From Escherichia phage vB_EcoM_CUA3, in sequence record PP410321: a DNA stretch of 64,000 nucleotides. One strand, 5' to 3'. How positions within the stretch are numbered: the stretch's first letter is position 1; each line of letters opens with the position of its first letter. The notes beneath the pieces were generated by a model that saw only the letters and a program-made list of their open reading frames with translations, had not been told where the DNA came from and ran no database searches. A program made the position numbers and the translations under genes. Positions 2,975 to 59,612 of the stretch are shown piece by piece.

Positions 2975-3466
2975 ATGGAGTTGACAGATATCACTCGTGC
3001 GTTTGAGTCAGGTGACTTTGCACGCCCTAACCTTTTCGAAGTGGAAATTCCATTTCTCGGTAAAAACTTTAGCTTTAAATGTAAAGCAGCACCCATGCCG
3101 GCAGGCATTGTAGAAAAAGTACCGGTTGGCTACATGAACCGTAAAATTAACGTAGCCGGTGACCGTACATTTGATGATTGGACCATTACCATTTATAACG
3201 ATGATGCTCATGACACCCGTCAGGCAATTGTTGATTGGCAGAACCTCTGTCACGGTATGACCAATGAAATTACCGGTGCTGCACCTGCAGAATATAAGAA
3301 ACAAGCAGTAGTTCGCCAGTTCCATCGTGATGGCAAGACTGTGACTAAAGAAGTTACAATTTATGGCTTATGGCCTACTAACGTTGGTGAAGTCCAGATG
3401 GACTGGGATTCAAACAACGAGGTAGAAACTTTCGAATCTACGTTCGCTATCGATTGGTGGGAATGA
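2975..3466 (+). CDS. 19: tail tube protein gp19
   Basis: ORF with TRAFESGDFARPNLF...DWDSNNE motifs recalled from T4 gp19; the second in-frame ATG at 2975 (GAGG SD upstream) gives 163 aa, the T4 length; the ORF track starts at 2963. Confidence 0.93.
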   Translation: MELTDITRAFESGDFARPNLFEVEIPFLGKNFSFKCKAAPMPAGIVEKVPVGYMNRKINVAGDRTFDDWTITIYNDDAHDTRQAIVDWQNLCHGMTNEITGAAPAEYKKQAVVRQFHRDGKTVTKEVTIYGLWPTNVGEVQMDWDSNNEVETFESTFAIDWWE

Positions 3467-3467
3467 G

Positions 3468-3475
3468 TATAAATA
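3468..3475 (+). promoter_or_regulatory. late promoter TATAAATA for gene 20
   Basis: Exact TATAAATA just after gene 19 stop. Confidence 0.55.
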
Positions 3476-3483
3476 GAACTATA

Positions 3484-3501
3484 AAGGAGCTTCGGCTCCT
3501 T
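3484..3501 (+). other. stem-loop AAGGAGC-TTCG-GCTCCTT in the 19-20 intergenic leader
   Basis: Perfect 7-bp stem with TTCG tetraloop; no following T-run, so more likely a leader or stability structure than a full terminator. Confidence 0.4.
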
Positions 3502-3523
3502 ATCCCATTCATCGGAGACTCTA

Positions 3524-5101
3524 ATGGCAAACTTTAATACAATATTAAGTTTTCTTAAGCCATGGGCTAATGAAGACGAAAAAGAATTTAAACAACAATT
3601 AAATAACAATTTAGAGTCTGTCACTGCACCTAAGCTTGATGATGGCGCTCGCGAAATTGAAACCCAAGAGCAAAATATTCCTTATAACGCTCTTATGCAA
3701 CAAATGTTTGGTAGTAATGAGCCTGAAGTAAAAAACACCAGGGAACTCATTGATACCTACCGTAATTTGATGAACAACTATGAAGTCGATAACGCAGTTC
3801 AAGAAATTGTGTCTGACGCTATTGTCTATGAGGATGATAAAGAAGTAGTTGCATTGAATTTAGACGGGACAGAATTCAGTCAATCAATTAAAGATAAAAT
3901 TTTGGCTGAATTTAGTGAAGTTTTAAACCTTTTAAATTTCCAACGTAAAGGCACTGACCATTTCCAACGTTGGTATGTAGACTCGAGAATATTCTTTCAT
4001 AAAATTATAAACCCTAAAAAAATGAAAGATGGCGTACAAGAGCTTCGACGCTTAGACCCGCGCCAAGTCCAATATATTCGTGAAATCGTTACACGTATGG
4101 AAGACGGCGTTAAAATTGTAGACGGGTATCGCGAGTTTTTCGTTTACGACACAGGCCATGAAAGTTATTGCGCTGATGGACGCATTTATTCAGCCGGGAC
4201 TAAAGTTAAAATTCCTCGTGCTGCGGTAGTTTATGCACATTCCGGATTATTAGATTGTTGTGGTAAAAACATCATTGGCTATTTGCAACGTGCTATTAAG
4301 CCTGCAAACCAGCTTAAATTGATGGAAGACGCAATGGTCATCTACCGTATTACACGTGCTCCCGACCGTCGTGTGTTTTATATCGATACAGGTAATATGC
4401 CTTCTCGTAAGGCGGCAGCACAAATGCAACATATCATGAACACGATGAAAAACCGTGTGGTGTATGATGCTTCGACCGGTAAAATTAAAAACCAGCAACA
4501 TAATATGTCAATGACTGAAGACTATTGGTTGCAACGTCGAGACGGTAAAGCAGTTACAGAAGTTGATACAATGCCAGGTGCTACTGGTATGAGTGATATG
4601 GATGACGTTCTTTATTTCCGCACAGCACTTTACCGTGCGCTGCGTATTCCAGAGTCGCGTATCCCTAGTGAATCTAATTCCGGTGTTATGTTTGATGCTG
4701 GTACGGCTATAACTCGTGATGAGTTGAAATTTGCTAAATGGATTCGTCAGCTCCAAAATAAATTCGAAGAAATTTTCTTAGACCCATTAAAAACAAACCT
4801 CATTCTTAAAAAGATTATTACAGAAGATGAGTGGGAAAGAGAAATAAATAATATTAAAGTTACGTTCAACCGTGATAGCTACTTCAGTGAAATGAAAGAT
4901 GCGGAAATCATGGAACGCAGAATCAATATGCTAACGATGGCTGAACCATTTATTGGTAAGTATATTTCACATCAAACGGCTATGAAAGATTTCCTTCAGA
5001 TGACTGACGAAGAAATTAATCAAGAAGCTAAGCAAATTGAAGAAGAGTCTAAAGAGGCTCGTTTCCAAAACCCAGATGAAGAAGAAGAAGAGGATTTCTA
5101 A
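3524..5101 (+). CDS. 20: portal vertex protein gp20
   Basis: 525-aa ORF, same size and position as T4 gp20 (524 aa), between 19 and 67; acidic C-terminus ...DEEEEEDF. Confidence 0.95.
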
Positions 5102-5376
5102 TGGAAGATTTAATCGAAGCTATTAAATCAAACGACCTCGTAGCAGTTCGTAAAGCAGCAGCCCCGCTTATCGAATCTCGAGTAGCCGCTTTGATTGAAG
5201 CCCGTAAAGCAGAAATTGCTCGCTCCGTTATGATTGAAGGCGAAGAAGCCGACGAAGATGACGAAGACGAAGATAAAGACGAAAAATCCGATAAAGCAGA
5301 TAAGAAAGACAAAAAAGAATCTGACGATGCGGATGAAGGTGATGACGGCGATGATGAAGACGAGGACGACGAATAA
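5101..5376 (+). CDS. 67: prohead core protein gp67 with extended acidic C-terminal tail
   Basis: 91-aa ORF start-overlapping gene 20 stop; very acidic tail; position between 20 and 68. Confidence 0.85.
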
Positions 5377-5804
5377 TGTTCCTTATCCCTGATGATTACG
5401 AATTAACTCTAGAAAGTGTAGAGGCCAAAATTCCAGAAGCACAGGGACGTTTTGCTACTCTTTCTGAAGCCCTCGAGAAAAGCGATATAAATAATCTTGT
5501 AGAGAACATGATTGCTGATGGCGATATTGATACAGCTATTGCCATCGCCTCTTTGAATGAAAATATGGCTCTTAACGAATTTATTGTTAAGCACGTTTCT
5601 TCTAAAGGTGAGCTTACTCGTACTAAAGATATTAAAACCCGTCAACGCAACGCTTATCAAACGACCGGGTTGTCTAAAGCAAAACGCCGTCAGATTGCTC
5701 GCAAAGCATCTAAAACCAAACGTGCTAATCCGTCTACTCAAGTACGTGCTGAACGTAAGCGTAAGAAAGCTCGTTCTAAACGTAAAGCCTTTGGACTTAA
5801 CTAA
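5376..5804 (+). CDS. 68: prohead core protein gp68
   Basis: 142-aa ORF with basic C-terminus, ATGA-type overlap with gene 67 and with gene 21; T4 synteny. Confidence 0.85.
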
Positions 5805-6439
5805 TGAAACCTGAATTGCTCATCGAACATTGGGGACAACCAGGTGAAATTATCGATGGGGTTCCAATGTTGGAATCTCATGATGGAAAAGATTCTGGAC
5901 TTGCCCCAGGCCTTTATATAGAAGGCATATTCATGCAAGCCGAAGTGGTTAACCGTAATAAACGCCTTTATCCAAAACCTATTTTGGAAAAAGCTGTTGC
6001 CGATTATATGGCAGAACAGGTTGCTACTAAACAAGCTTTAGGAGAATTAAATCATCCGCCTCGTGCTAACGTTGACCCTATGCAAGCCGCTATTATTATT
6101 GAAGATATGTGGTGGAAAGGTAATGACGTTTATGGACGTGCTCGTATTATTGAAGGCGACCATGGTCCTGGTGATAAACTAGCTGCTAATATTAGAGCCG
6201 GTTGGGTACCTGGTGTTAGTTCTCGTGGTCTAGGTTCTTTAACTGAAACCAACAAAGGATATAAGCGTGTAAACGAAGGTTATAAATTAACCGTCGGTGT
6301 TGATGCAGTATGGGGACCATCTGCTCCTGATGCTTATGTAACTCCTAAACAAATTACAGAATCACAAACGGTAGATACCGATACCAGTGCCGATGACGCC
6401 TTTATGGCTCTCGCAGAGGCCATGAAAAAAGCGTTATAA
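5804..6439 (+). CDS. 21: prohead core scaffold protease gp21
   Basis: 211-aa ORF (T4 gp21 is 212 aa) between 68 and 22. Confidence 0.93.
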   Translation: MKPELLIEHWGQPGEIIDGVPMLESHDGKDSGLAPGLYIEGIFMQAEVVNRNKRLYPKPILEKAVADYMAEQVATKQALGELNHPPRANVDPMQAAIIIEDMWWKGNDVYGRARIIEGDHGPGDKLAANIRAGWVPGVSSRGLGSLTETNKGYKRVNEGYKLTVGVDAVWGPSAPDAYVTPKQITESQTVDTDTSADDAFMALAEAMKKAL

Positions 6440-6469: not shown

Positions 6470-7285
6470 ATGCTTAAAGAACAACTGATTGCTGAAGCAC
6501 AGAATATTGATGCTTCCGTTGCTCTTGACAGTATTTTCGAATCAGTTAATATTTCTCCGGAAGCAAAAGAAACTTTCGGCACTGTATTCGAAGCTACCGT
6601 CAAGCAACACGCCGTTAAACTGGCTGAATCTCACATCGCTAAAATCGCTGAAAAAGCGGAAGAAGAAGTTGAGAAAAATAAAGAAGAAGCTGAAGAAAAA
6701 GCCGATAAGAAAATCCAAGAAGCTGCCGGTCGTTTCCTTGACCACGTCGCTAAAGAATGGATGGCTGAAAACCAGCTGGCTGTTGATAAAGGTATTAAAG
6801 CCGAACTGTTCGAATCCATGTTGATGGGTATGAAAGAACTGTTTGTTGAACACAACGTGGTTGTTCCAGAAGAAGCAGTAGACGTTGTCGCTGAAATGGA
6901 AGAAGAACTTCAAGAGCAGAAAGATGAAACCGCTCGTCTGTTCGAAGAAGTTGGTAAGCGCGATGCGTATATTAATTACGTACAGCGTGAAGTTGCGTTG
7001 ACTGAAGCAACTAAAGACCTGACTGAATCTCAGAAAGAAAAAGTTAGTTCTCTGGTAGAAGGCATGGATTATTCCGATGCATTTGGTAAAAAAATTGGCG
7101 CTATCGTTGAAATGGTTAAAGGCCAGACCGACGTTGAAAAACCAATCACCGAAGCCGCTATAAATAAAACTGAAGACGATGCTGCAGCACTGAATTATAT
7201 TTCGGAAGCAGTTGAAGAAAAAGGCGCTAAGCCTACCCTGTCCTTCGCGGACCTGTCTGCAATCGCAGCATCACGAATTTCTTAA
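6470..7285 (+). CDS. 22: major prohead scaffolding core protein gp22
   Basis: 271-aa highly acidic, E/K/A-rich coiled-coil-like ORF; position before gene 23. Confidence 0.93.
   Translation: MLKEQLIAEAQNIDASVALDSIFESVNISPEAKETFGTVFEATVKQHAVKLAESHIAKIAEKAEEEVEKNKEEAEEKADKKIQEAAGRFLDHVAKEWMAENQLAVDKGIKAELFESMLMGMKELFVEHNVVVPEEAVDVVAEMEEELQEQKDETARLFEEVGKRDAYINYVQREVALTEATKDLTESQKEKVSSLVEGMDYSDAFGKKIGAIVEMVKGQTDVEKPITEAAINKTEDDAAALNYISEAVEEKGAKPTLSFADLSAIAASRIS
7159..7166 (+). promoter_or_regulatory. candidate late promoter TATAAATA inside the 3' end of gene 22
   Basis: Exact TATAAATA about 140 nt upstream of gene 23 ATG; unusually far, so tentative. Confidence 0.35.
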
Positions 7286-7306
7286 TTTAATAAGGTTATA
7301 CAACAC

Positions 7307-8866
7307 ATGAAAAAGAATGCATTAGTTCAAAAATGGTCCGCTCTGCTGGAAAACGAAGCTCTTCCTGAAATCGTTGGTGCTTCTAAACAAGCTATCATCG
7401 CTAAAATTTTCGAAAACCAGGAACAAGACATCCTGACTGCTCCGGAATATCGTGACGAAAAAATCTCCGAAGCATTTGGTTCTTTCTTGACCGAAGCTGA
7501 AATCGGCGGTGACCACGGTTATGATGCTACCAATATCGCAGCTGGCCAGACCTCTGGTGCTGTAACTCAGATTGGGCCGGCAGTAATGGGTATGGTTCGT
7601 CGTGCTATTCCTCATCTGATTGCTTTTGATATTTGTGGTGTTCAGCCTCTGAATAACCCTACCGGCCAGGTATTTGCACTGCGTGCAGTATATGGTAAAG
7701 ACCCTATCGCTGCTGGCGCTAAAGAAGCTTTCCACCCGATGTATGCTCCAAATGCTATGTTCTCTGGTCAGGGTGCTGCTCAGACTTTTGAAGCACTGGC
7801 TGCAAGTAAAGTTCTGGAAGTTGGTAAAATTTATTCTCACTTCTTCGAAGCTACCGGTTCTGCACACTTCCAGGCTGTTGAAGCTGTAACCGTTGATGCT
7901 GGCGCTACTGATGCCGCTAAACTGGATGCTGCTGTAACCGCTCTGTTGGAAGCTGGTCAGTTGGCTGAAATCGCTGAAGGCATGGCTACTTCTATCGCTG
8001 AACTTCAGGAAGGCTTTAATGGTTCTCAGGATAACCCGTGGAACGAAATGGGCTTCCGTATCGATAAACAAGTTATCGAAGCTAAATCCCGTCAGCTGAA
8101 AGCAAGCTACTCCATCGAACTGGCACAGGACCTTCGTGCAGTACACGGTATGGATGCAGATGCTGAACTGTCCGGTATCCTTGCTACCGAAATTATGCTC
8201 GAAATCAACCGTGAAGTTATCGATTGGATTAACTACTCTGCACAGGTTGGTAAATCTGGTATGACCAACACCGTTGGCGCTAAAGCTGGTGTGTTTGACT
8301 TCCAGGACCCGATTGATATCCGTGGTGCTCGTTGGGCCGGTGAAAGCTTTAAAGCTCTCCTGTTCCAGATTGATAAAGAAGCAGCCGAAATCGCTCGTCA
8401 GACCGGTCGTGGTGCTGGTAACTTCATCATCGCTTCCCGTAACGTAGTTAACGTACTGGCTGCAGTTGATACTTCTGTAAGTTATGCAGCTCAGGGTCTT
8501 GGTCAAGGTTTCAACGTTGACACCACTAAAGCAGTATTTGCCGGTGTTCTTGGTGGTAAATATCGCGTTTACATTGACCAGTATGCACGTTCCGATTACT
8601 TCACTATCGGTTATAAAGGCGCTAACGAAATGGACGCAGGTATCTACTACGCTCCGTACGTTGCACTGACCCCGCTGCGTGGTTCCGATCCGAAGAACTT
8701 CCAACCGGTAATGGGCTTCAAAACTCGTTACGGTATCGGTATCAACCCGTTTGCTGACCCAGCTGCTCAGGCACCTACCAAACGTATTCAGAATGGTATG
8801 CCGGACATCGTTAACAGCCTTGGTCTGAATGGTTACTTCCGTCGTGTTTATGTTAAAGGTATCTAA
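7307..8866 (+). CDS. 23: major capsid protein gp23
   Basis: 519-aa ORF (T4 gp23 521 aa) with strong high-expression codon bias; conserved blocks recalled from T4 gp23. Confidence 0.97.
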   Translation: MKKNALVQKWSALLENEALPEIVGASKQAIIAKIFENQEQDILTAPEYRDEKISEAFGSFLTEAEIGGDHGYDATNIAAGQTSGAVTQIGPAVMGMVRRAIPHLIAFDICGVQPLNNPTGQVFALRAVYGKDPIAAGAKEAFHPMYAPNAMFSGQGAAQTFEALAASKVLEVGKIYSHFFEATGSAHFQAVEAVTVDAGATDAAKLDAAVTALLEAGQLAEIAEGMATSIAELQEGFNGSQDNPWNEMGFRIDKQVIEAKSRQLKASYSIELAQDLRAVHGMDADAELSGILATEIMLEINREVIDWINYSAQVGKSGMTNTVGAKAGVFDFQDPIDIRGARWAGESFKALLFQIDKEAAEIARQTGRGAGNFIIASRNVVNVLAAVDTSVSYAAQGLGQGFNVDTTKAVFAGVLGGKYRVYIDQYARSDYFTIGYKGANEMDAGIYYAPYVALTPLRGSDPKNFQPVMGFKTRYGIGINPFADPAAQAPTKRIQNGMPDIVNSLGLNGYFRRVYVKGI

Positions 8867-8882
8867 GACCTAACCTTATTAT

Positions 8883-8900
8883 GGGAGACTTCGGTCTCCC
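8883..8900 (+). terminator. rho-independent terminator after gene 23
   Basis: GGGAGAC-TTCG-GTCTCCC perfect hairpin followed by T-rich ATTCTTGTTTCTG. Confidence 0.7.
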
Positions 8901-9247
8901 ATTCTTGTTTCTGTACNNNNNNNNNNNNNNNNNNNNNNNNNNNNNNNNNNNNNNNNNNNNNNNNNNNNNNNNNNNNNNNNNNNNNNNNNNNNNNNNNNNN
9001 NNNNNNNNNNNNNNNNNNNNNNNNNNNNNNNNNNNNNNNNNNNNNNNNNNNNNNNNNNNNNNNNNNNNNNNNNNNNNNNNNNNNNNNNNNNNNNNNNNNN
9101 NNNNNNNNNNNNNNNNNNNNNNNNNNNNNNNNNNNNNNNNNNNNNNNNNNNNNNNNNNNNNNNNNNNNNNNNNNNNNNNNNNNNNNNNNNNNNNNNNNNN
9201 NNNNNNNNNNNNNNNNNNNNNNNNNNNNNNNNNNNNNNNNNNACCTT

Positions 9248-12885: not shown

Positions 12886-15613
12886 ANNNNNNNNNNNNNN
12901 NNNNNNNNNNNNNNNNNNNNNNNNNNNNNNNNNNNNNNNNNNNNNNNNNNNNNNNNNNNNNNNNNNNNNNNNNNNNNNNNNNNNNNNNNNNNNNNNNNNN
13001 NNNNNNNNNNNNNNNNNNNNNNNNNNNNNNNNNNNNNNNNNNNNNNNNNNNNNNNNNNNNNNNNNNNNNNNNNNNNNNNNNNNNNNNNNNNNNNNNNNNN
13101 NNNNNNNNNNNNNNNNNNNNNNNNNNNNNNNNNNNNNNNNNNNNNNNNNNNNNNNNNNNNNNNNNNNNNNNNNNNNNNNNNNNNNNNNNNNNNNNNNNNN
13201 NNNNNNNNNNNNNNNNNNNNNNNNNNNNNNNNNNNNNNNNNNNNNNNNNNNNNNNNNAATCACCATAATAAATATAATTAAATAGAAGAGTTAGTATTCT
13301 TCTGTCACCAAGCCAAATGGTTTAACGGAAGGACCTAGACCCATTATAACACATCTAAATTTAAAGCATATTACTTTGAACCAGAACGCGCTTTGCGCCG
13401 AACCTTATTGNNNNNNNNNNNNNNNNNNNNNNNNNNNNNNNNNNNNNNNNNNNNNNNNNNNNNNNNNNNNNNNNNNNNNNNNNNNNNNNNNNNNNNNNNN
13501 NNNNNNNNNNNNAATTTTTTAGCAATATCAATAAAATTCATACCAGATTCATGTAAAAAATGTACTTTAATCTTATCCATAACAATTCTCTTGTNNNNNN
13601 NNNNNNNNNNNNNNNNNNNNNNNNNNNNNNNNNNNNNNNNNNNNNNNNNNNNNNNNNNNNNNNNNNNNNNNNNNNNNNNNNNNNNNNNNNNNNNNNNNNN
13701 NNNNNNNNNNNNNNNNNNNNNNNNNNNNNNNNNNNNNNNNNNNNNNNNNNNNNNNNNNNNNNNNNNNNNNNNNNNNNNNNNNNNNNNNNNNNNNNNNNNN
13801 NNNNNNNNNNNNNNNNNNNNNNNNNNNNNNNNNNNNNNNNNNNNNNNNNNNNNNNNNNNNNNNNNNNNNNNNNNNNNNNNNNNNNNNNNNNNNNNNNNNN
13901 NNNNNNNNNNNNNNNNNNNNNNNNNNNNNNNNNNNNNNNNNNNNNNNNNNNNNNNNNNNNNNNNNNNNNNNNNNNNNNNNNNNNNNNNNNNNNNNNNNNN
14001 NNNNNNNNNNNNNNNNNNNNNNNNNNNNNNNNNNNNNNNNNNNNNNNNNNNNNNNNNNNNNNNNNNNNNNNNNNNNNNNNNNNNNNNNNNNNNNNNNNNN
14101 NNNNNNNNNNNNNNNNNNNNNNNNNNNNNNNNNNNNNNNNNNNNNNNNNNNNNNNNNNNNNNNNNNNNNNNNNNNNNNNNNNNNNNNNNNNNNNNNNNNN
14201 NNNNNNNNNNNNNNNNNNNNNNNNNNNNNNNNNNNNNNNNNNNNNNNNNNNNNNNNNNNNNNNNNNNNNNNNNNNNNNNNNNNNNNNNNNNNNNNNNNNN
14301 NNNNNNNNNNNNNNNNNNNNNNNNNNNNNNNNNNNNNNNNNNNNNNNNNNNNNNNNNNNNNNNNNNNNNNNNNNNNNNNNNNNNNNNNNNNNNNNNNNNN
14401 NNNNNNNNNNNNNNNNNNNNNNNNNNNNNNNNNNNNNNNNNNNNNNNNNNNNNNNNNNNNNNNNNNNNNNNNNNNNNNNNNNNNNNNNNNNNNNNNNNNN
14501 NNNNNNNNNNNNNNNNNNNNNNNNNNNNNNNNNNNNNNNNNNNNNNNNNNNNNNNNNNNNNNNNNNNNNNNNNNNNNNNNNNNNNNNNNNNNNNNNNNNN
14601 NNNNNNNNNNNNNNNNNNNNNNNNNNNNNNNNNNNNNNNNNNNNNNNNNNNNNNNNNNNNNNNNNNNNNNNNNNNNNNNNNNNNNNNNNNNNNNNNNNNN
14701 NNNNNNNNNNNNNNNNNNNNNNNNNNNNNNNNNNNNNNNNNNNNNNNNNNNNNNNNNNNNNNNNNNNNNNNNNNNNNNNNNNNNNNNNNNNNNNNNNNNN
14801 NNNNNNNNNNNNNNNNNNNNNNNNNNNNNNNNNNNNNNNNNNNNNNNNNNNNNNNNNNNNNNNNNNNNNNNNNNNNNNNNNNNNNNNNNNNNNNNNNNNN
14901 NNNNNNNNNNNNNNNNNNNNNNNNNNNNNNNNNNNNNNNNNNNNNNNNNNNNNNNNNNNNNNNNNNNNNNNNNNNNNNNNNNNNNNNNNNNNNNNNNNNN
15001 NNNNNNNNNNNNNNNNNNNNNNNNNNNNNNNNNNNNNNNNNNNNNNNNNNNNNNNNNNNNNNNNNNNNNNNNNNNNNNNNNNNNNNNNNNNNNNNNNNNN
15101 NNNNNNNNNNNNNNNNNNNNNNNNNNNNNNNNNNNNNNNNNNNNNNNNNNNNNNNNNNNNNNNNNNNNNNNNNNNNNNNNNNNNNNNNNNNNNNNNNNNN
15201 NNNNNNNNNNNNNNNNNNNNNNNNNNNNNNNNNNNNNNNNNNNNNNNNNNNNNNNNNNNNNNNNNNNNNNNNNNNNNNNNNNNNNNNNNNNNNNNNNNNN
15301 NNNNNNNNNNNNNNNNNNNNNNNNNNNNNNNNNNNNNNNNNNNNNNNNNNNNNNNNNNNNNNNNNNNNNNNNNNNNNNNNNNNNNNNNNNNNNNNNNNNN
15401 NNNNNNNNNNNNNNNNNNNNNNNNNNNNNNNNNNNNNNNNNNNNNNNNNNNNNNNNNNNNNNNNNNNNNNNNNNNNNNNNNNNNNNNNNNNNNNNNNNNN
15501 NNNNNNNNNNNNNNNNNNNNNNNNNNNNNNNNNNNNNNNNNNNNNNNNNNNNNNNNNNNNNNNNNNNNNNNNNNNNNNNNNNNNNNNNNNNNNNNNNNNN
15601 NNNNNNNNNNNNN

Positions 15614-27521: not shown

Positions 27522-27527
27522 CAAAAA

Positions 27528-27549
27528 AGGAGAGCGTATGCTCTCCTTT
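27528..27549. terminator. bidirectional terminator between gene 54 and the convergent alt operon
   Basis: AAGGAGAGC-GTAT-GCTCTCCTT hairpin flanked by A-run upstream and T-rich sequence downstream. Confidence 0.7.
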
Positions 27550-27555
27550 AGGGGG

Positions 27556-27846
27556 TTATTTGCGGAACGAGATAAAACCTGCAGCGGTCATTAATGGCTG
27601 CTTTTTAACAAAGACCGTAATAGAAATAGGAGCTTCAGATTCAAGCTGACCGGTTACTACGCCATTAAAGATATTTTCGGTTTGTTCGGGTTGTGAAAAA
27701 TTTTCAACCGGACGTAAGTCGAACTGCTTGTCTTCACCGAAAACTCGACGTAATTCATTACCTACTGCACTGTCGAACTCTTCAGAAGCAGGGATAACGT
27801 TTTCAACTACCAACTCTTGACCATTAAAACGGAATGCAGATTTCAT
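27556..27846 (-). CDS. hypothetical protein downstream of alt (alt.-1/-2/-3 position)
   Basis: 96-aa ORF with GAGGAG SD upstream of the ATG; positional equivalent of the T4 small alt-downstream ORFs. Confidence 0.6.
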   Translation of the reverse strand: MKSAFRFNGQELVVENVIPASEEFDSAVGNELRRVFGEDKQFDLRPVENFSQPEQTENIFNGVVTGQLESEAPISITVFVKKQPLMTAAGFISFRK

Positions 27847-27903: not shown

Positions 27904-30027
27904 CTACATTTTGAATTTATTTGATAAAGAAGAGATGTCCAAAGATGCAGCAAGGATTTCCATAGCCTCATTACTTTCTGAAACAGATTCTGAAATTAGG
28001 AATTCTTTAAACCCGTTCATCAATTTAACTTCACCGGTTTCCATCAAATGGTCACCATCGTAAACAGATTCACTGAGCTCTGAAGGAGACGTTACGGTAG
28101 CTTCCATAAGGTATTTGTGAGATACTCTATCGTTCATAGCAAAAGCCGCTACTTTATCAACCTTCAACAACAATCCACGCGGAAGGATAATTTCTGCTTC
28201 TTCGGCGTATTCTGTAAGGTCACCAGGAGCGATAACTTTAACTGCTTCAGCACCTCTAATAACCATACCAATTTCGGCAATTCTATCTGCAGGACCTTCA
28301 GGTGCAATTGGATTACCAAACTCGTCTTCTTCCCATTCTACCTCTTCGTCATCGACTTCACCCACATCAGATGAACTACCGCTGGTCAATTTAAACAACT
28401 CATCAGCAGAGGATAAAGAACCTTCACCACCAACAAAAACGGCTTGGTTGTCGAGGGCCATATAATTTTTACCGAATTCACCAAAGATGTTAGGCTTTAA
28501 TGAGGCTGATACAAAGTTCTTAAAGTAAAATGTTTTGTTATCGATATTATGACGCAGAATTTTGTATGGCAAATCCTGACCACGATACAAAATAGTACCC
28601 TTAGGAAGTTTAATACCCTTAGTAAATGCTGAGTCTAAATCCTTAATCAATCTAATAGCCGTTGTATTGTTTTCGGATTCAGGTTTACCTAAAAGGAATA
28701 AGTTCATAGGAGCATATTCGGCCGCACAATATTCAATAATGGCGTTACTTTCGTCTTTAGTCAAGCCCTTAGGTTTAATGAGCTCGCCTGAATAAGCATA
28801 CGCATCACCAATAGAATCGTTAATCAGTTTATAAACGGCTTCCATAGCGAAAGCAATTCGGGATGCTTTCTCTGAAGGAGTACCCTTAAAACGGGTGCTC
28901 AGGTTATTAACAATTTTCTTAATAATATCCAGACTATTGGTTGTATTGATTTGCGAAAGGCCGCTTAAAAGTCTATCGACTTCTGTATTAAAAAATGCCA
29001 TATTTTTAGAGTAAATTTCAAACCCTTGTTTATCTCTATTAGCATAGTTTAGTTTAAATTTACTATCGGTCATTAAAGCGTGCGTAAGAGCAATGGTGTA
29101 TCTAAAGTTGGCAAGGTCCTCACTCTTAGATTTAAACTGAGAGGCCTGACGCATTTTAGTAATAGCACCTTTTTTAAAGTTCTGGCTAATCTGTTCAATA
29201 CCTTCGTTCTCAGGGCCTTCGGCCGAGTGAACAGGGACAGAAGCTTCAAACTCGTTATAAACCTGCAATTCTTTAGGTGATAAAGTTTCAGGTTCAGCAG
29301 TAGAATACTGCGCTGCTGCAGCCATACGACGGGAAATCTTAGTACGAGAAATAACAGCCTTATCGGTACGTTTCTCTTCAACCTGTGCAATAGATGCTGC
29401 TACGGCTTCTACCTTACTTACGGCCTGGCCGGTTTTCTTAGAAACATAAACTTCACCGACTTTAGACTCAACCTTGGTATAAAGGTCCGCATCAATTTCA
29501 GGCATACCCTTGATATCTTCGATATTAGTGCCACGACGTGCTAAAAGAACGTATGTATGTTTACCACTAAACTGGAACATATCATCGACAACTTTAAACT
29601 TACCACCGGTACGTGCCATCGCCAAACGAGCTAATACACGCTGAACGGTAGGACCCTTACCTTTCATTTTCTTGGTAGGGAAACGGAACAGAACTGCGTC
29701 CATTTTAAGTTTATTTACTTGTTCATATATTGTATCGAAAATAGTATTCAATGCGCCAAGTGGGTCTGGACCAAGACCACCTTTGAGTTCAGCCGGAGCA
29801 CCCTTGCTCGATAAACTCATTAGAATAACGTGGACATATTTGTCGCCGGGCTTAACCATTTTAATAGCGTCTCCTTGAGACGCATAAGATACCATACGAG
29901 CAACCAGGTTATCATTACCTGGTGCTTGGATAGAGAAAATCTGTGGGATACCTGAGCCTGGCTTAAGATTTGTTACTGGATAGTTTTTAGCTGAATCACT
30001 ATCAAAAACTTCGTTTAAATTTTCCAT
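27904..30027 (-). CDS. alt: Alt-like ADP-ribosyltransferase, paralog 1
   Basis: 707-aa ORF (T4 Alt 682 aa); C-terminal region has ART-like R (LYRGQ), S-x-S (FVSASL) and E-x-E (EEAEII) motifs. Confidence 0.88.
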   Translation of the reverse strand: MENLNEVFDSDSAKNYPVTNLKPGSGIPQIFSIQAPGNDNLVARMVSYASQGDAIKMVKPGDKYVHVILMSLSSKGAPAELKGGLGPDPLGALNTIFDTIYEQVNKLKMDAVLFRFPTKKMKGKGPTVQRVLARLAMARTGGKFKVVDDMFQFSGKHTYVLLARRGTNIEDIKGMPEIDADLYTKVESKVGEVYVSKKTGQAVSKVEAVAASIAQVEEKRTDKAVISRTKISRRMAAAAQYSTAEPETLSPKELQVYNEFEASVPVHSAEGPENEGIEQISQNFKKGAITKMRQASQFKSKSEDLANFRYTIALTHALMTDSKFKLNYANRDKQGFEIYSKNMAFFNTEVDRLLSGLSQINTTNSLDIIKKIVNNLSTRFKGTPSEKASRIAFAMEAVYKLINDSIGDAYAYSGELIKPKGLTKDESNAIIEYCAAEYAPMNLFLLGKPESENNTTAIRLIKDLDSAFTKGIKLPKGTILYRGQDLPYKILRHNIDNKTFYFKNFVSASLKPNIFGEFGKNYMALDNQAVFVGGEGSLSSADELFKLTSGSSSDVGEVDDEEVEWEEDEFGNPIAPEGPADRIAEIGMVIRGAEAVKVIAPGDLTEYAEEAEIILPRGLLLKVDKVAAFAMNDRVSHKYLMEATVTSPSELSESVYDGDHLMETGEVKLMNGFKEFLISESVSESNEAMEILAASLDISSLSNKFKM

Positions 30028-30030
30028 TAT

Positions 30031-32115
30031 TTACCCTTGGATGAATTTTTCTGGGATGTCATAGAGGTCTATGCATGAAGCCAAAAGAGGCAGTACGTCA
30101 AACCGTGTAGATTTAACAAATGAATCAAAAGATACAGGGCTTTCGGAAGTATCGAAGTCATCTTGATATACAACCAATTCACCGGTTTCCATTAGTACGT
30201 CACCATCATACACTACAGATTCTTGAAGCTCATCTGTCGTCATAACTTCAGCTTGAATGAGTTTTGTATTNNNNNNNNNNNNNNNNNNNNNNNNNNNNNN
30301 NNNNNNNNNNNNNNNNNNNNNNNNNNNNNNNNNNNNNNNNNNNNNNNNNNNNNNNNNNNNNNNNNNNNNNNNNNNNNNNNNNNNNNNNNNNNNNNNNNNN
30401 NNNNNNNNNNNNNNNNNNNNNNNNNNNNNNNNNNNNNNNNNNNNNNNNNNNNNNNNNNNNNNNNNNNNNNNNNNNNNNNNNNNNNNNNNNNNNNNNNNNN
30501 NNNNNNNNNNNNNNNNNNNNNNNNNNNNNNNNNNNTCTAAAAGACCTACACCGGCATGGGTAACACCAAAACGACCGAAAATAATAGGGGTCAGTGAAGT
30601 TGATACAAAGTTTCTAAAATAGAATACTTTATTTTTNNNNNNNNNNNNNNNNNNNNNNNNNGTCATACTCTGTGCACGATAAACTGTGATGCCTTCAGGT
30701 AATCTATCGCCGTTTTCAAAAGCAGAATCCAAATTATTAACTGCAGATTCGATATCTTTTTCGCTCATAACTTCATAGTTCTGAGGATTATATCGTCCTA
30801 AAAGAAGGTTATTGATATCGNNNNNNNNNNNNNNNNNNNNNNNNNNNNNNNNNNNNNNNNNNNNNNNNNNNNNNNNNNNNNNNNNNNNNNNNANAGTAAT
30901 ATCAACCATAATACCGCCACCTACACCAGCAAAACTATAAACACGTTTTTTAATGAACTTGGTCTTAGCGGCTTTCCACTTAGACTCGGTCAATTCGTTC
31001 CAGAGGTCGTCAGGTTGACCTTTACGAGTTTTGTTATGCTTAGCCAGCCATTCGCCTTTATATTCTTCAAAAACTGTATTAATAACAGAGGCATATTTTT
31101 CTAGAGCTTTAACAGATGTCAAAGGTTCGTTTTTGATGGCTGTAAGGATTTTCTCTTTAATTTTCTCTTGGATTTCACCTATACCGTGAAGAGGAAACAT
31201 TTTATAATCGTAATGCAACTCTTCAGCAGTGCCTTCAGCTACTATATTAGCAACCTTATTTTTAGCCGCAGGAGAATTGTTATTAGTAACCATTTCTTGG
31301 GCATCAGGGATTAATGGAGCTGTTGCCGGTTTATTAAAATCAGCGGCAGTGGCTTCATATTTCTTAAACAGTTCGCTTTCATTACGATAGGATTCTAAAG
31401 ACTGGCTTGCCGCAATAGCACGTCGAGAAATCTTAGTCTTGGTTATAACCATTTTATCGGTGCGACGTTCTTCAACTTTAGCAATACTGCCGGCAATAGC
31501 AGTTTCTTTAGTAACCTGCACGCCTTCTTTTTTAGAAATATAAACTTCACCGACATCAGAATCTACCTTAGTGTATAATTCGGAATTAATTCCAGGCATA
31601 CCTTTGATATCTTCGATATCAGCTTGTTTACGGACTACCAGGATGTAAGTATGTTTACCGGTAAATTGGTACATAGCCGGAACCACTTTAAAACGTCCAC
31701 CGGTTTTCTGCGCTACCAAACGTTGGATAATACGTTGAACGATAGGGCCTTGACCTTTCATTTTCTTAGTAGGGAAACGGAACATCACGGCATCCATACG
31801 AAGCTTTTTAACTTGTTCGAATACTACGTCGAAAATGGTATTGATAGCATCAATAGGAGTAGGGCCTAAGCCACCTTTGAGTTCAGCCGGAGAACCTTTA
31901 GCTGAAAGGCTCATAAGGATAACGTGGGCGTATTTATCACCTAATTTAACCTGTTTAATAGCATCGCCTTCAGAGGCATAAGATACCATACGAGCCACCA
32001 GTTGGGATTCGGCATCGCCAATCTTCCAAATCTGTGGTACTTTAAGTTTTGGGTTTAAGTTTACAGTAGGCAGGGTGCCTTCAGACTCAAACACCTCATT
32101 CAATTGTTCGGTCAT
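30031..32115 (-). CDS. Alt-like ADP-ribosyltransferase, paralog 2 (C-terminal domain partly masked)
   Basis: 694-aa ORF immediately upstream of paralog 1 with a 3-nt gap; the N-terminal 230 aa align closely with paralog 1; visible VYRAQSM and FVSTSL motifs. Confidence 0.85.
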   Translation of the reverse strand: MTEQLNEVFESEGTLPTVNLNPKLKVPQIWKIGDAESQLVARMVSYASEGDAIKQVKLGDKYAHVILMSLSAKGSPAELKGGLGPTPIDAINTIFDVVFEQVKKLRMDAVMFRFPTKKMKGQGPIVQRIIQRLVAQKTGGRFKVVPAMYQFTGKHTYILVVRKQADIEDIKGMPGINSELYTKVDSDVGEVYISKKEGVQVTKETAIAGSIAKVEERRTDKMVITKTKISRRAIAASQSLESYRNESELFKKYEATAADFNKPATAPLIPDAQEMVTNNNSPAAKNKVANIVAEGTAEELHYDYKMFPLHGIGEIQEKIKEKILTAIKNEPLTSVKALEKYASVINTVFEEYKGEWLAKHNKTRKGQPDDLWNELTESKWKAAKTKFIKKRVYSFAGVGGGIMVDITXXXXXXXXXXXXXXXXXXXXXXXXXDINNLLLGRYNPQNYEVMSEKDIESAVNNLDSAFENGDRLPEGITVYRAQSMXXXXXXXXXKNKVFYFRNFVSTSLTPIIFGRFGVTHAGVGLLXXXXXXXXXXXXXXXXXXXXXXXXXXXXXXXXXXXXXXXXXXXXXXXXXXXXXXXXXXXXXXXXXXXXXXXXXXXXXXXXXXXXXXXXXNTKLIQAEVMTTDELQESVVYDGDVLMETGELVVYQDDFDTSESPVSFDSFVKSTRFDVLPLLASCIDLYDIPEKFIQG

Positions 32116-32151
32116 AATAATTCCTCTTTAATAACCGTATTTATGCCATAA

Positions 32152-32167
32152 AAGGCCCGAAGGCCTT
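32152..32167 (-). terminator. hairpin AAGGCC-CGAA-GGCCTT upstream of alt paralog 2
   Basis: Perfect 6-bp GC-rich stem; on the minus strand followed by TTTTATGGCATAAATACGG, which contains the late-promoter-like CATAAATA. Confidence 0.5.
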
Positions 32168-55643: not shown

Positions 55644-58600
55644 ATGGCTGATATTTTAAAACCTGCATTCCGTGCTACATCCGGACTCGATGCTGCGGGC
55701 GAGAAAGTTATCAATGTTGCCAAAGCCGATTACAATGTACTAGATGATGGCGTCAACGTTGAATTCTTTATAGATGAGAACACCATCCAGGCGTACGACG
55801 AGACGCGCGGATATAAGAAAGGGTTTGCAGTAATCCATGACCAACGTATTTGGGTTGCTCAACGTGATATCGATGCGCCAGCTGGAACTTTTGTACCTGG
55901 TTATTGGACCGCTACCCGTACTGACCCTAAGTGGATTACCGTAGCATCTCCTACTCGCCAGTTGGCTTCCGGTGAATATATTGCAGTGGATTCTGCGGCT
56001 AGCTTTACTACATTTACTCTGCCTCCGAACCCTACAGACGGTGATACCATTGTAATCAAAGATATCGGTGGTCGTGTAGGTTATAATGAAATCAAAGTTC
56101 AATCTAGTTCTGCACCTGGTGGTGGTAACCAGAAAATTGTTCGATTTGGTAATCAGTTCTCTGAAACTCTGATAACCAAACCTTTTTCTTATAACATGCT
56201 TATCTTTGCTAATCGTTTATGGCATTTCTGGGAAGCTGGTAACGAAGAACGTGGTATTCGTGTAGAGCCTAACACCGCTCAGTTCCAAGCTCAAGCAGGT
56301 GATAACGTTTTACGTCGTTATACTTCTGGTGCAGTAATTAAATTTACTCTTCCTAAGTATGCGAACCAAGGTGATATGGTTAAAACCGTTGATATCGATG
56401 GTCTTGGAAGTAAGTTCCATTTAATCGTTGAAACGTTTGATGCATCGTCTTCATTAGGTAAGCCCGACCAGCATAGCATGGAATTCCGTACCTCCGGTGA
56501 TGGATTCTTTGTTTATAACTCTGTTGAAAAAATGTGGTATGTTTGGGACGGCGATCGTCAAACTCGTTTACGTGTAATTCGTGACGATGTTGAGCTCTTG
56601 GCTAATGAAAGCGTTATCGTTTTTGGTCCTAATAATACGACCCCACAAACTATTAATATCACTTTACCTACTAACGTAGCGCAAGGCGATACTATTAAAA
56701 TCGCATTGAACTACCTTCGTAAAGCTCAGACCGTAAATATTAAGGCCGCTGTAGGAGATAAGATTGCTTCTTCGGTTCAATTACTCCAGTTCCCTAAACG
56801 TTCGGAATATCCACCAGATACTGAATGGGTTCTGAATGACGTACTGACCTTTAATGGTAACTTAAGTTATACTCCGGTTATTGAACTTAGCTATATCGAA
56901 GATACCACCACAGGTGGAAAATATTGGGTTGTTGCTCAGAACGTTCCTACTGTAGAACGTGTCGATTCTAAGGACGATTTAACTCGTGCTCGTCTTGGTG
57001 TTATTGCCCTTGCGTCTCAGACTCAGGCAAACGTCGACCATGAAAATAATCCTGAGAAAGAACTTGCAATTACTCCGCAGACTTTAGCCAATCGTGTAGC
57101 GACCGAAACTCGTCGTGGTATTGCTCGTATTGCTACAACAGCTCAAGTTAACCAGAACACGACTTTCGCTTTCCAGGACGATTTGATTATTTCTCCTAAG
57201 AAATTAAACGAACGTACTGCTACCGAAACTCGTCGCGGTGTCGCTGAAATTGCTACGCAACAGGAAACTGATGCTGGTGTTGATGATACAACCATTATCA
57301 CTCCTAAGAAGCTACAGACGCGCCAGGGAACTGAAACCCTGTCTGGTATAGTAAAATATNNNNNNNNNNNNNNNNNNNNNNNNNNNNNNNNNNNNNNNAC
57401 TGTAGGTACCAACGTTTATAATAAGAACNNNNNNNNTTTAGTTATTTCTCCTAAAGCTTTAGACCAGTATAAAGCTNNNNNNNNNNNNNNNNNNNNNNNN
57501 NNNNNNNNNNNNNNNNNNNNNNNNNNNNNNNNNNNNNNNNNNNNNNNNNNNNNNNNNNNNNNNNNNNNNNNNNNNNNNNNNNNNNNNNNNNNNNNNNNNN
57601 NNNNNNNNNNNNNNTTAATTGAAATTGCTACGCAAGCAGAGACTGATGCTGGAACTGATTATACTCGTGCGGTAACGCCCAAGACGTTAAATGATAGGAA
57701 GGCTACAGANNGATTAACTGGTATTGCTCGTATTGGTACTCAAGTAGAATTTGATGCAGGTGTATTAGATAATGTTATTTCAACTCCGTTGAAAATTAAA
57801 ACAAGATTTAATGATACTGCTAGAACTTCTGTCTCAGCAGCCAGTGGTTTGGTTGAATCAGGAACCTTATGGAACCATTATACACTAGATATCCGTGAAG
57901 CAAGTAATACCCAACGTGGTACGGCTCGTTTGGCTACCCAAACTGAAGTTAATNNNNNNNNNNNNNNNNNNNNNNNNNNNNNNNNNNNNNNNNNNNNNNN
58001 NNNNNNNNNNNNNNNNNNNNNNNNNNNNNNNNNNNNNNNNNNNNNNNNNNNNNNNNNNNNNNNNNNNNNNNNNNNNNNNNNNNNNNNNNNNNNNNNNNNN
58101 NNNNNNNNNNNNNNNNNNNNNNNNNNNNNNNNNNNNNNNNNNNNNNNNNNNNNNNNNNNNNNNNNNNNNNNNNNNNNNNNNNNNNNNNNNNNNNNNNNNN
58201 NNNNNNNNNNNNNNNNNNNNNNNNNNNNNNNNNNNNNNNNNNNNNNNNNNNNNNNNNNNNNNNNNNNNNNNNNNNNNNNNNNNNNNNNNNNNNNNNNNNN
58301 NNNNNNNNNNNNNNNNNNNNNNNNNNNNNNNNNNNNNNNNNNNNNNNNNNNNNNNNNNNNNNNNNNNNNNNNNNNNNNNNNNNNNNNNNNNNNNNNNNNN
58401 NNNNNNNNNNNNNNNNNNNNNNNNNNNNNNNNNNNNNNNNNNNNNNNNNNNNNNNNNNNNNNNNNNNNNNNNNNNNNNNNNNNNNNNNNNNNNNNNNNNN
58501 NNNNNNNNNNNNNNNNNNNNNNNNNNNNNNNNNNNNNNNNNNNNNNNNNNNNNNNNNNNNNNNNNNNNNNNNNNNNNNNNNNNNNNNNNNNNNNNNNNNN

Positions 58601-59612
58601 NNNNNNNNNNNNNNNNNNNNNNNNNNNNNNNNNNNNNNNNNNNNNNNNNNNNNNNNNNNNNNNNNNNNNNNNNNNNNNNNNNNNNNNNNNNNNNNNNNNN
58701 NNNNNNNNNNNNNNNNNNNNNNNNNNNNNNNNNNNNNNNNNNNNNNNNNNNNNNNNNNNNNNNNNNNNNNNNNNNNNNNNNNNNNNNNNNNNNNNNNNNN
58801 NNNNNNNNNNNNNNNNNNNNNNNNNNNNNNNNNNNNNNNNNNNNNNNNNNNNNNNNNNNNNNNNNNNNNNNNNNNNNNNNNNNNNNNNNNNNNNNNNNNN
58901 NNNNNNNNNNNNNNNNNNNNNNNNNNNNNNNNNNNNNNNNNNNNNNNNNNNNNNNNNNNNNNNNNNNNNNNNNNNNNNNNNNNNNNNNNNNNNNNNNNNN
59001 NNNNNNNNNNNNNNNNNNNNNNNNNNNNNNNNNNNNNNNNNNNNNNNNNNNNNNNNNNNNNNNNNNNNNNNNNNNNNNNNNNNNNNNNNNNNNNNNNNNN
59101 NNNNNNNNNNNNNNNNNNNNNNNNNNNNNNNNNNNNNNNNNNNNNNNNNNNNNNNNNNNNNNNNNNNNNNNNNNNNNNNNNNNNNNNNNNNNNNNNNNNN
59201 NNNNNNNNNNNNNNNNNNNNNNNNNNNNNNNNNNNNNNNNNNNNNNNNNNNNNNNNNNNNNNNNNNNNNNNNNNNNNNNNNNNNNNNNNNNNAAGTTAAA
59301 TCACCTGGTACATTAACCCAGTTCGGTAATACNNNNNNNNNNNNNNNNNNNNNNNNNNNNNNNNNNNNNNNNNNNNNNNNNNNNNNNNNNNNNNNNNNNN
59401 NNNNNNNNNNNNNNNNNNNNNNNNNNNNNNNNNNNNNNNNNNNNNNNNNNNNNNNNNNNNNNNNNNNNNNNNNNNNNNNNNNNNNNNNNNNNNNNNNNNN
59501 NNNNNNNNNNNNNNNNNNNNNNNNNNNNNNNNNNGATTGGCTGCGTATTGGTAACGTTCGTATAATTCCAGACCCAGTAACTCGTTCTGTTAAATTCGAA
59601 TGGATTGAATAA
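55644..59612 (+). CDS. 34: long tail fibre proximal subunit gp34 (interior partly masked)
   Basis: 1322-codon frame open across the masked segments (T4 gp34 1289 aa); repeated ...ETRRG.A.IAT.. fibre motifs; first gene after the late promoter. Confidence 0.9.
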   Translation: MADILKPAFRATSGLDAAGEKVINVAKADYNVLDDGVNVEFFIDENTIQAYDETRGYKKGFAVIHDQRIWVAQRDIDAPAGTFVPGYWTATRTDPKWITVASPTRQLASGEYIAVDSAASFTTFTLPPNPTDGDTIVIKDIGGRVGYNEIKVQSSSAPGGGNQKIVRFGNQFSETLITKPFSYNMLIFANRLWHFWEAGNEERGIRVEPNTAQFQAQAGDNVLRRYTSGAVIKFTLPKYANQGDMVKTVDIDGLGSKFHLIVETFDASSSLGKPDQHSMEFRTSGDGFFVYNSVEKMWYVWDGDRQTRLRVIRDDVELLANESVIVFGPNNTTPQTINITLPTNVAQGDTIKIALNYLRKAQTVNIKAAVGDKIASSVQLLQFPKRSEYPPDTEWVLNDVLTFNGNLSYTPVIELSYIEDTTTGGKYWVVAQNVPTVERVDSKDDLTRARLGVIALASQTQANVDHENNPEKELAITPQTLANRVATETRRGIARIATTAQVNQNTTFAFQDDLIISPKKLNERTATETRRGVAEIATQQETDAGVDDTTIITPKKLQTRQGTETLSGIVKYXXXXXXXXXXXXXTVGTNVYNKNXXXLVISPKALDQYKAXXXXXXXXXXXXXXXXXXXXXXXXXXXXXXXXXXXXXXXXXXXXXXLIEIATQAETDAGTDYTRAVTPKTLNDRKATXXLTGIARIGTQVEFDAGVLDNVISTPLKIKTRFNDTARTSVSAASGLVESGTLWNHYTLDIREASNTQRGTARLATQTEVNXXXXXXXXXXXXXXXXXXXXXXXXXXXXXXXXXXXXXXXXXXXXXXXXXXXXXXXXXXXXXXXXXXXXXXXXXXXXXXXXXXXXXXXXXXXXXXXXXXXXXXXXXXXXXXXXXXXXXXXXXXXXXXXXXXXXXXXXXXXXXXXXXXXXXXXXXXXXXXXXXXXXXXXXXXXXXXXXXXXXXXXXXXXXXXXXXXXXXXXXXXXXXXXXXXXXXXXXXXXXXXXXXXXXXXXXXXXXXXXXXXXXXXXXXXXXXXXXXXXXXXXXXXXXXXXXXXXXXXXXXXXXXXXXXXXXXXXXXXXXXXXXXXXXXXXXXXXXXXXXXXXXXXXXXXXXXXXXXXXXXXXXXXXXXXXXXXXXXXXXXXXXXXXXXXXXXXXXXXXXXXXXXXXXXXXXXXXXXXXXXXXXXXXXXXXXXXXXXXXXXXXXXXXXXXXXXXXXXXXXXXXXXXXVKSPGTLTQFGNXXXXXXXXXXXXXXXXXXXXXXXXXXXXXXXXXXXXXXXXXXXXXXXXXXXXXXXXXXXXXXXXXXXXDWLRIGNVRIIPDPVTRSVKFEWIE

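Follow-up and report, generated by a model that had tools for sequence, protein, structure and literature searches.

Coliphage T4 carries in its capsid, and injects into the host cell, the ADP-ribosyltransferase (ART) Alt, whose targets in the host include RNA polymerase alpha. The genome of Escherichia phage vB_EcoM_CUA3 (record PP410321) raises the question of why a phage would keep two genes of this kind side by side. In the 64,000-nt stretch of this genome that was analyzed (hereafter, the window), two adjacent genes, altA and altB, occupy positions 27904 to 32115. The two genes and the elements of their locus given below with coordinates lie on the minus strand. We regard it as probable that altA and altB are paralogs of the T4 Alt family that arose long ago and have been maintained separately, and that their products are most likely active arginine-specific mono-ADP-ribosyltransferases, made late in infection, packaged, injected, and acting on differing substrates.

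Two Alt genes at the T4-like alt locus

The window belongs to a Dhakavirus (a JS98-like coliphage), with phages dhaeg, dhabil, and CLB_P2 as its best megablast matches (~95%). The upstream gene altA (30031..32115) encodes a protein of 694 aa and is the positional counterpart of T4 alt, and the downstream gene altB (27904..30027), fully readable, encodes 707 aa; the gap between them is 3 nt. Both proteins matched PF03496 (ADPrib_exo_Tox), AltB at 61.6 bits and AltA at 48.3 bits, with the Pfam gathering score being 23.4 bits. Both also matched PHROG 802, "Alt-like RNA polymerase ADP-ribosyltransferase" (E values of 8e-251 and 6e-209), AltB over residues 1–707 and AltA in two stretches, the best of which covered residues 1–522. 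These assignments confirmed the two adjacent Alt-type open reading frames (ORFs) of about 700 aa given in the preliminary description of this stretch, which was made from the sequence alone. According to precomputed annotations, all Alt homologues found contain PF26846 together with PF03496. NCBIfam had no model for AltA, AltB, or Alt.-3, and a phmmer search of PDB sequences with AltB returned no match.

The flanks are T4-like, with gene 48, gene 54, and alt.-3 on one side and alt.1 and the DNA ligase gene on the other, so that the pair occupies the same position as T4 alt, between DNA ligase/alt.1 and alt.-3/gp54. The genomes of JS98, JS10, and IME08 contain the same two genes in the same order and position, annotated as alta and altb; AltB is 98% identical (JS10/JS98), and the N-terminal module and tail of AltA are 97%–99% identical. 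The tandem altA/altB pair is thus already known: its annotation goes back to the JS98 genome, and it is frequent in T-even phages. As originally stated, the finding of a tandem pair adds nothing new. The alt gene goes unmentioned in a review of T4-related genomes. No tRNA genes were found in the window.

Domain architecture and catalytic motifs

Pairwise alignment of AltA and AltB showed 39% identity overall (E value of 2e-113), distributed very unevenly: 65% in residues 1–240, 11% in the middle of about 190 residues, 40% in the ART region, and 38% in the C-tail. The similarity of the N-termini that had been claimed for the pair is therefore real, and so is the divergence downstream, except that the latter is not limited to the C-terminal catalytic region and affects everything beyond about residue 240, the helical middle, which is unrelated in the two proteins, included. 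Each protein consists of an N-terminal module (N-module) of ~240 aa, a helical middle, an ART domain, and a short conserved C-tail.

The N-module of AltB (residues 1–240; 29308..30027) is an alpha/beta domain beginning with MENLNE|V, which includes an L-x-E site of the type probably recognized by the prohead protease gp21. Its AltA counterpart (residues 1–240; 31396..32115) begins with MTEQLNE|V. The middle of AltB (residues 241–430; 28738..29307), all-helical in the predicted model, could not be aligned with that of AltA. The ART domain of AltB (residues ~431–650; 28078..28737) contains the R-S-E motifs, and its full R / S-x-S / E-x-E triad is readable: R482 in LYRGQ (28576–28590), S507-A-S509 in FVSASL (28498–28515), and E610-A-E612 in EAEIILPRG (28174–28200). 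A disordered acidic insert (residues 551–578) separates S-x-S from ExE in AltB. In AltA, the arginine and the STS motif were read in VYRAQ (30670–30684) and FVSTSL (30592–30609), and the position of ExE lies under a run of masked letters. The Arg (YRxQ) and S-x-S columns, readable in both proteins, are invariant in the alignment. The ExE motif supports the predicted arginine specificity of Alt proteins.

The C-tails contain the motif YDGDxLMETGE, as YDGDHLMETGE in AltB (28030..28062) and as YDGDVLMETGE in AltA (30178–30210), the two forming a repeat with 81% nucleotide identity. It is nearly invariant, lies ~45–50 residues from the C-terminus in both proteins, and was found in 86 of 120 homologues.

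Toxin ARTs were reached solely with a profile of the ART region. The C3, VIP2, iota-Ia, and Vis toxins have the same fold and R-S-E motifs as the Alt proteins, but identity to them is 13%–25% and their delivery route is different.

Age of the pair and the exceptional state of T4

The effector part of AltB (residues 241–707) was used as a tblastn query. It was found in many Tequatrovirus genomes with ~51% identity over 90%–97% of its length, and altogether AltB-type effector parts were present in ~400–460 phage records. In slur02 and T6, the ligase gene and alt.1 are followed by an alt gene encoding 697 aa, another encoding 685 aa after a gap of 3 nt, then alt.-3, and finally gene 54. The architecture of these pairs is identical to that of the window; effector parts are 70%–72% identical within the A type and 52% within the B type (over 457 aa for slur02 AltB), whereas A and B types compared with each other share only 33%–38%. 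The N-modules of the T6 and slur02 pairs, on the contrary, are genus-specific, with 42%–47% identity across genera.

Tandem Alt pairs are also present in SP18 (Gaprivervirus), Shewanella phage Thanatos-2, Aeromonas phage avDM1, and Acinetobacter phage Henu6. Only one copy is present in Mosigvirus, Marfavirus, and S16. Some Dhakaviruses (WG01, PSD9, and AnYang) have a third one. The third Alt type, 624–631 aa long, is encoded upstream of altA (WG01 locus 7117–9012, SP18 locus 4495–6369) and is absent from the window; it retains the N-module and the R-S-E triad and lacks the YDGDxLMETGE C-tail.

Consequently, the pair is neither peculiar to the CUA3 genome nor a recent duplication, being present in JS98, JS10, and IME08 and also in T6 and slur02. 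It is ancient and is what T-even phages normally have; T4 is the exception. Judging from the sequence comparisons, the A and B types were already separate when Tequatrovirus and Dhakavirus split and have remained so.

T4 Alt resembles the window proteins in its locus, upstream hairpin, late promoter, domain order, R-S-E triad, N-terminal L-x-E, and C-tail motif. It differs from them in sequence (N-module 42%–46% identical, AltA cassette 48%, AltB effector part 34%), and T4 has one full alt gene followed by the remnant alt.-1/alt.-2. The latter (NC_000866 locus 4066–4451) is described in the annotation as stemming from an old duplication of the beginning of alt. Comparison with slur02 AltB (slur02 locus 3239–5296) was decisive for its origin: alt.-1/alt.-2 is 94.6% identical to residues 1–56 and 62–116 of this protein, and T4 DNA lacks ~1.69 kb of altB (slur02 locus 3587–5276). 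Therefore, T4 deleted most of altB. Comparison of alt.-1/alt.-2 with the Dhakavirus proteins gave only a marginal preference, 43% for AltB and 37.5% for AltA.

Probable divergence of substrates

Different targets for AltA and AltB are plausible. Since the middle, the ART domain with its surface, and the tail differ, and AltB has its acidic insert, differing substrates would be the likeliest reason why both proteins are kept. Divided substrates are known for ModA and ModB of T4, which are neighboring phage ART paralogs (PMC10468400) and belong to the same R-S-E clade (PMC5512222); the Mod proteins differ from Alt in being small, early, unpackaged, and devoid of an N-module. Functional divergence between Alt alleles also has a precedent, as T4 Alt helps to evade the type I Mokosh system and Bas37 Alt does not complement it (preprint 10.1101/2025.11.20.689424). 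No functional study of AltB was found in the literature searched.

Alternatively, the two enzymes could be redundant, both modifying RNA polymerase alpha and the remaining targets of T4 Alt, with the second copy serving as a dose or a buffer. The common type of catalytic motif (ExE, arginine-specific), the shared N- and C-terminal signals, and the loss of altB from T4 without obvious harm would fit such a role, but a dosage duplicate is expected either to stay similar or to be lost. Here, the effector parts are 33%–38% identical with unrelated middles, the acidic insert between SxS and ExE is AltB's own, and the two types predate the Tequatrovirus/Dhakavirus split. We thus consider redundancy unlikely and prefer the divergence of substrates.

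Probable late expression, packaging, and injection

On the coding strand, the region upstream of altA contains, in order, the alt.1 stop codon, the hairpin GGCCTTCGGGCC (32165–32154), TTTTATGG, the late-promoter-like element CATAAATA (32145–32138), GAGG, and the altA ATG. The hairpin (GGCC-UUCG-GGCC; 32154..32165) directly follows the alt.1 stop, has a predicted folding energy of −10.8 kcal/mol, and is identical at 12 of 12 nucleotides in the alignment of the window, T4, JS98, dhaeg, and WG01. The element CATAAATA (32138..32145), located 22 nt upstream of the ATG, is column-aligned with the canonical T4 TATAAATA upstream of alt, with one mismatch that is conserved across Dhakavirus. Record X15811 (T4 alt) annotates TATAAATA as a late promoter and also includes a ribosome-binding site, with which the GAGG Shine-Dalgarno sequence of altA (32123..32126) aligns. 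Taken alone, CATAAATA is unremarkable (seen once versus 3.9 expected), as is the hairpin (fold z = −1.1), and scans for sigma-70 promoters and terminators gave results at the level of shuffled sequences. Both elements were accepted on the sole ground that they align with the annotated elements of T4; this alignment bears out the putative late promoter and hairpin that had been noticed in front of the first copy.

No promoter-like element was found in the altA-altB gap. Downstream of altB lies alt.-3 (27556..27846; 96 aa), the final gene in the apparent unit, and it is followed by a strong intrinsic-terminator-like hairpin with a T-run (27526..27549) in the space separating the alt unit from gene 54, which converges on it. 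Because of the 3-nt gap without a promoter and the subsequent alt.-3 and terminator-like hairpin, we infer a single late transcription unit: altA, altB, and alt.-3 appear to be expressed together, and altA and altB would be made late from the single promoter in front of altA. Extension of the C-terminus of T4 Alt.-3 enables the phage to escape the CmdTAC defence by blocking CmdA degradation (PMC11618068).

T4 Alt is a protein of the prohead core present in ~40 copies per head, and gp21 trims it after L/I-x-E (PMC9958956, PMC9026906); mass spectrometry showed that its C-terminus is trimmed by gp21 as well (PMC9026906). The N-terminal site reads ITE|LF in T4, where 6 aa are removed; X15811 annotates the mature peptide without these first 6 residues. 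Both window proteins have LNE|VF at this place, and an N-terminal [LIV]xE motif was found in 114 of the 120 homologues. LNE|V is thus a putative prohead-protease site in both proteins, and LME within YDGDxLMETGE is a candidate C-terminal gp21 site.

By analogy with T4 Alt, AltA and AltB would enter the prohead core by means of the terminal parts that they share, and gp21 would trim both at the N-terminal L-x-E and probably also C-terminally. The N-module presumably serves packaging or ejection. Injected with the DNA, the two enzymes would then ADP-ribosylate arginine residues of host proteins when the next infection begins.

A different fate could be envisaged for AltB, which might act late in the producing cell or be a structural head protein with an ART fold, and not be injected at all. 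Packaging was shown for T4 Alt alone, the protein in the AltA position, and no proteomic data on AltB were found. On the other hand, AltB shares the N-terminal L-x-E, the N-module, and the C-tail motif with T4 Alt, and its gene follows altA after 3 nt in what appears to be one late unit; we regard a non-injected AltB as even less likely than redundancy of the two enzymes.

Integrity of altA and altB

The window contains 57 runs of N with a total length of 10,765 nt, including its last 2.4 kb (61573–64000), 13595–15613, and 57954–59292, and several of the long ORFs listed in the large masked blocks are translated mostly as X. Four of the 57 runs fall into altA (30271–30535, 30637–30661, 30821–30892, and 30894) and hide 363 of its 2,085 nt, which confirmed that the catalytic region of this paralog is partly masked, as had been reported. 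Since such runs are scattered throughout the window, they reflect masking and not biology. The longest run in altA (30271..30535; 265 nt) covers residues 527–615, including the expected place of ExE-ILPRG, and the reading frame continues across it.

The 572 readable residues of AltA share 99.3% identity with the CLB_P2 and dhaeg proteins and 97% with a group of 694-aa variants. At the masked site, the AltA relatives with 97%–99% identity read TEAE(I/V)ILPRG, and ExE-ILPRG is kept in all 120 homologues obtained when 5.8 billion proteins were searched. Compared with dhaeg and CLB_P2, the masked block contains 8 additional codons, and it corresponds in length to the 694-aa variants; the stretch hidden by the 30271–30535 mask may therefore represent a different allele from its readable flanks.

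Both genes are under purifying selection, with dN/dS relative to close relatives of 0.044–0.056 for altB and 0.016–0.033 for altA (0.016 versus dhaeg). Neither gene is decaying, and both look intact. A decaying pseudogene or a catalytically dead copy could be suspected from the masked ExE of AltA and from alt.-1/alt.-2 of T4, which show that altB can decay. It is nevertheless very improbable: both frames are open without a frameshift, the AltB triad is complete, the low dN/dS holds for both genes, and the motif hidden in AltA is present in every relative. That the two ORFs are an assembly duplicate, for which nothing speaks except the tandem arrangement itself, is already refuted by their DNA-level identity, at most 75% even in the best stretch of 286 nt with an unalignable middle, and by the same pair in dozens of independently sequenced phages.

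Several points weigh against two active, injected paralogs with differing substrates. No virion proteomics of a Dhakavirus was found in the literature searched. Position 1 of the promoter element is a C and not a T. In AltA, the mask hides ExE, and the extra 8 codons make the content of the masked block not fully predictable. The third Alt type (WG01, SP18) has no C-tail, so the tail is not obligatory in the family. Finally, T4 thrives without altB, which means that, on laboratory hosts at least, the gene is not required.

Mosaic structure and probable exchange of the AltA effector cassette

AltB is conserved at 97%–100% among the four Dhakaviruses compared. In AltA, by contrast, the N-module hardly varies within a genus but the center does. 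Between the window and JS98, AltA is 99% identical in the N-module, 36% in the middle, 67% in the ART domain, and 97% in the tail, and dS is 0.30 in the N-module versus 0.96 in the rest. The central part of altA used for comparison corresponds to 30265–31336 of the window; at the protein level, this center (~residues 261–617) is the dhaeg/CLB_P2 allele. Likewise, the cassettes of JS98 and dhaeg AltA are 46% identical despite N-modules that are 99% identical. The same pattern was found in other genera: T4 and T6 have N-modules with 100% identity and cassettes with 46%, and the T4 cassette is 46%–48% identical to those of T6 and the window. Conversely, cassettes are shared between genera independently of the N-module: WG01 and T6 AltA share only 46% in the N-module versus 82% in the cassette. 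JS98 AltA and a Mosigvirus Alt share 76% in the N-module and 75% in the cassette, compared with the 46% between the cassettes of JS98 and dhaeg.

Four-taxon bootstrap analysis of Dhakavirus AltA and AltB together with slur02 AltA and AltB showed that the proteins are mosaics, with opposite groupings for their parts. The N-terminal 240 residues grouped by genome/genus in 1000 of 1000 bootstraps, while the middle, the ART domain, and the tail each grouped by paralog type, also in 1000 of 1000.

The simplest reading is that the AltA effector cassette has probably been exchanged by recombination between co-infecting T-even phages. Crossovers could have taken place in the conserved sequence closing the N-module (RTDKxVIxxTKISRR) and in the C-tail motif. 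Synonymous divergence agrees with the bootstrap groupings: the dS between the two N-modules of the window is 1.19, and between genera it reaches ~2.6 and is saturated. Recent gene conversion between the two N-modules was rejected because of this dS, nucleotide identity of 72%–75%, and the absence of long identical tracts. Older gene conversion between the tandem N-modules is possible and is not separable from cassette exchange.

Knowledge of Alt comes almost entirely from T4, a phage whose AltA cassette is atypical (46%–48% identity to T6 and CUA3) and which lacks AltB. Owing to its absence from T4, AltB escaped study, although it is a second, probably packaged and injected ADP-ribosyltransferase encoded in ~400–460 sequenced phage records. 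The preprint on type I Mokosh suggests that allele or paralog differences at alt affect which hosts can be infected; such differences would matter for the choice of therapeutic T4-like phages.

The N-terminal module

We tentatively describe the N-module as GNAT-like, and in fold only. When five N-modules were compared with Pfam by hmmscan at E values up to 10, no match was obtained, and hence none to a GNAT family model. A nearly invariant LKGGLGxxP directly precedes the helix 89–106 and would lie roughly where GNATs bind the pyrophosphate of CoA. Compared with the GNAT loop Q/R-x-x-G-x-G/A, this motif has G-x-G and lacks the leading Q/R.

At the sequence level, the N-module is rare, with 70 cluster representatives out of 1.84 billion. 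All full-length matches of the AltB search contained the same ART. Ten representatives of unusual length with the N-module were scanned against Pfam; six had the same ART family and four had unrecognized cargo. Weaker matches to the N-module (E values from 1e-6 to 1e-4, TM ~0.47) were obtained with Foldseek against predicted viral structures. These are large uncharacterized proteins of Ackermannviridae, Vibrio phages, and jumbo phages, some of them with zeta-toxin or deaminase domains; for a carrier role of the module, the predicted models are suggestive, not decisive. The N-module as a general carrier of many cargo types is weakly supported.

A conserved delivery part combined with variable, recombining cargo is known for the T-even internal proteins with a capsid-targeting sequence (PMC3012670) and for MuF/polymorphic toxins (PMC9503650). 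Alt differs from them in having a folded domain of 240 aa in place of a 10-residue peptide or a MuF domain, and its cargo nearly always belongs to the same ART family. By extension, alt might be a polymorphic locus of injected effectors, in which a genus-specific N-module carries interchangeable ART cassettes and AltB would be a second injected enzyme with host or defence targets of its own, overlooked through the deletion in T4. In its boldest form, the N-module would be an active acyltransferase and Alt a bifunctional enzyme. This is speculative, and we assign it a low probability.

The rare metagenomic proteins P0171 (1,142 aa), P0172 (541 aa), P0169 (485 aa), and P0175 (347 aa) contain the N-module, and neither ART nor any other domain was recognized in them with Pfam or PHROGs. 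In proteins of the P0171 type, the module may carry other cargo.

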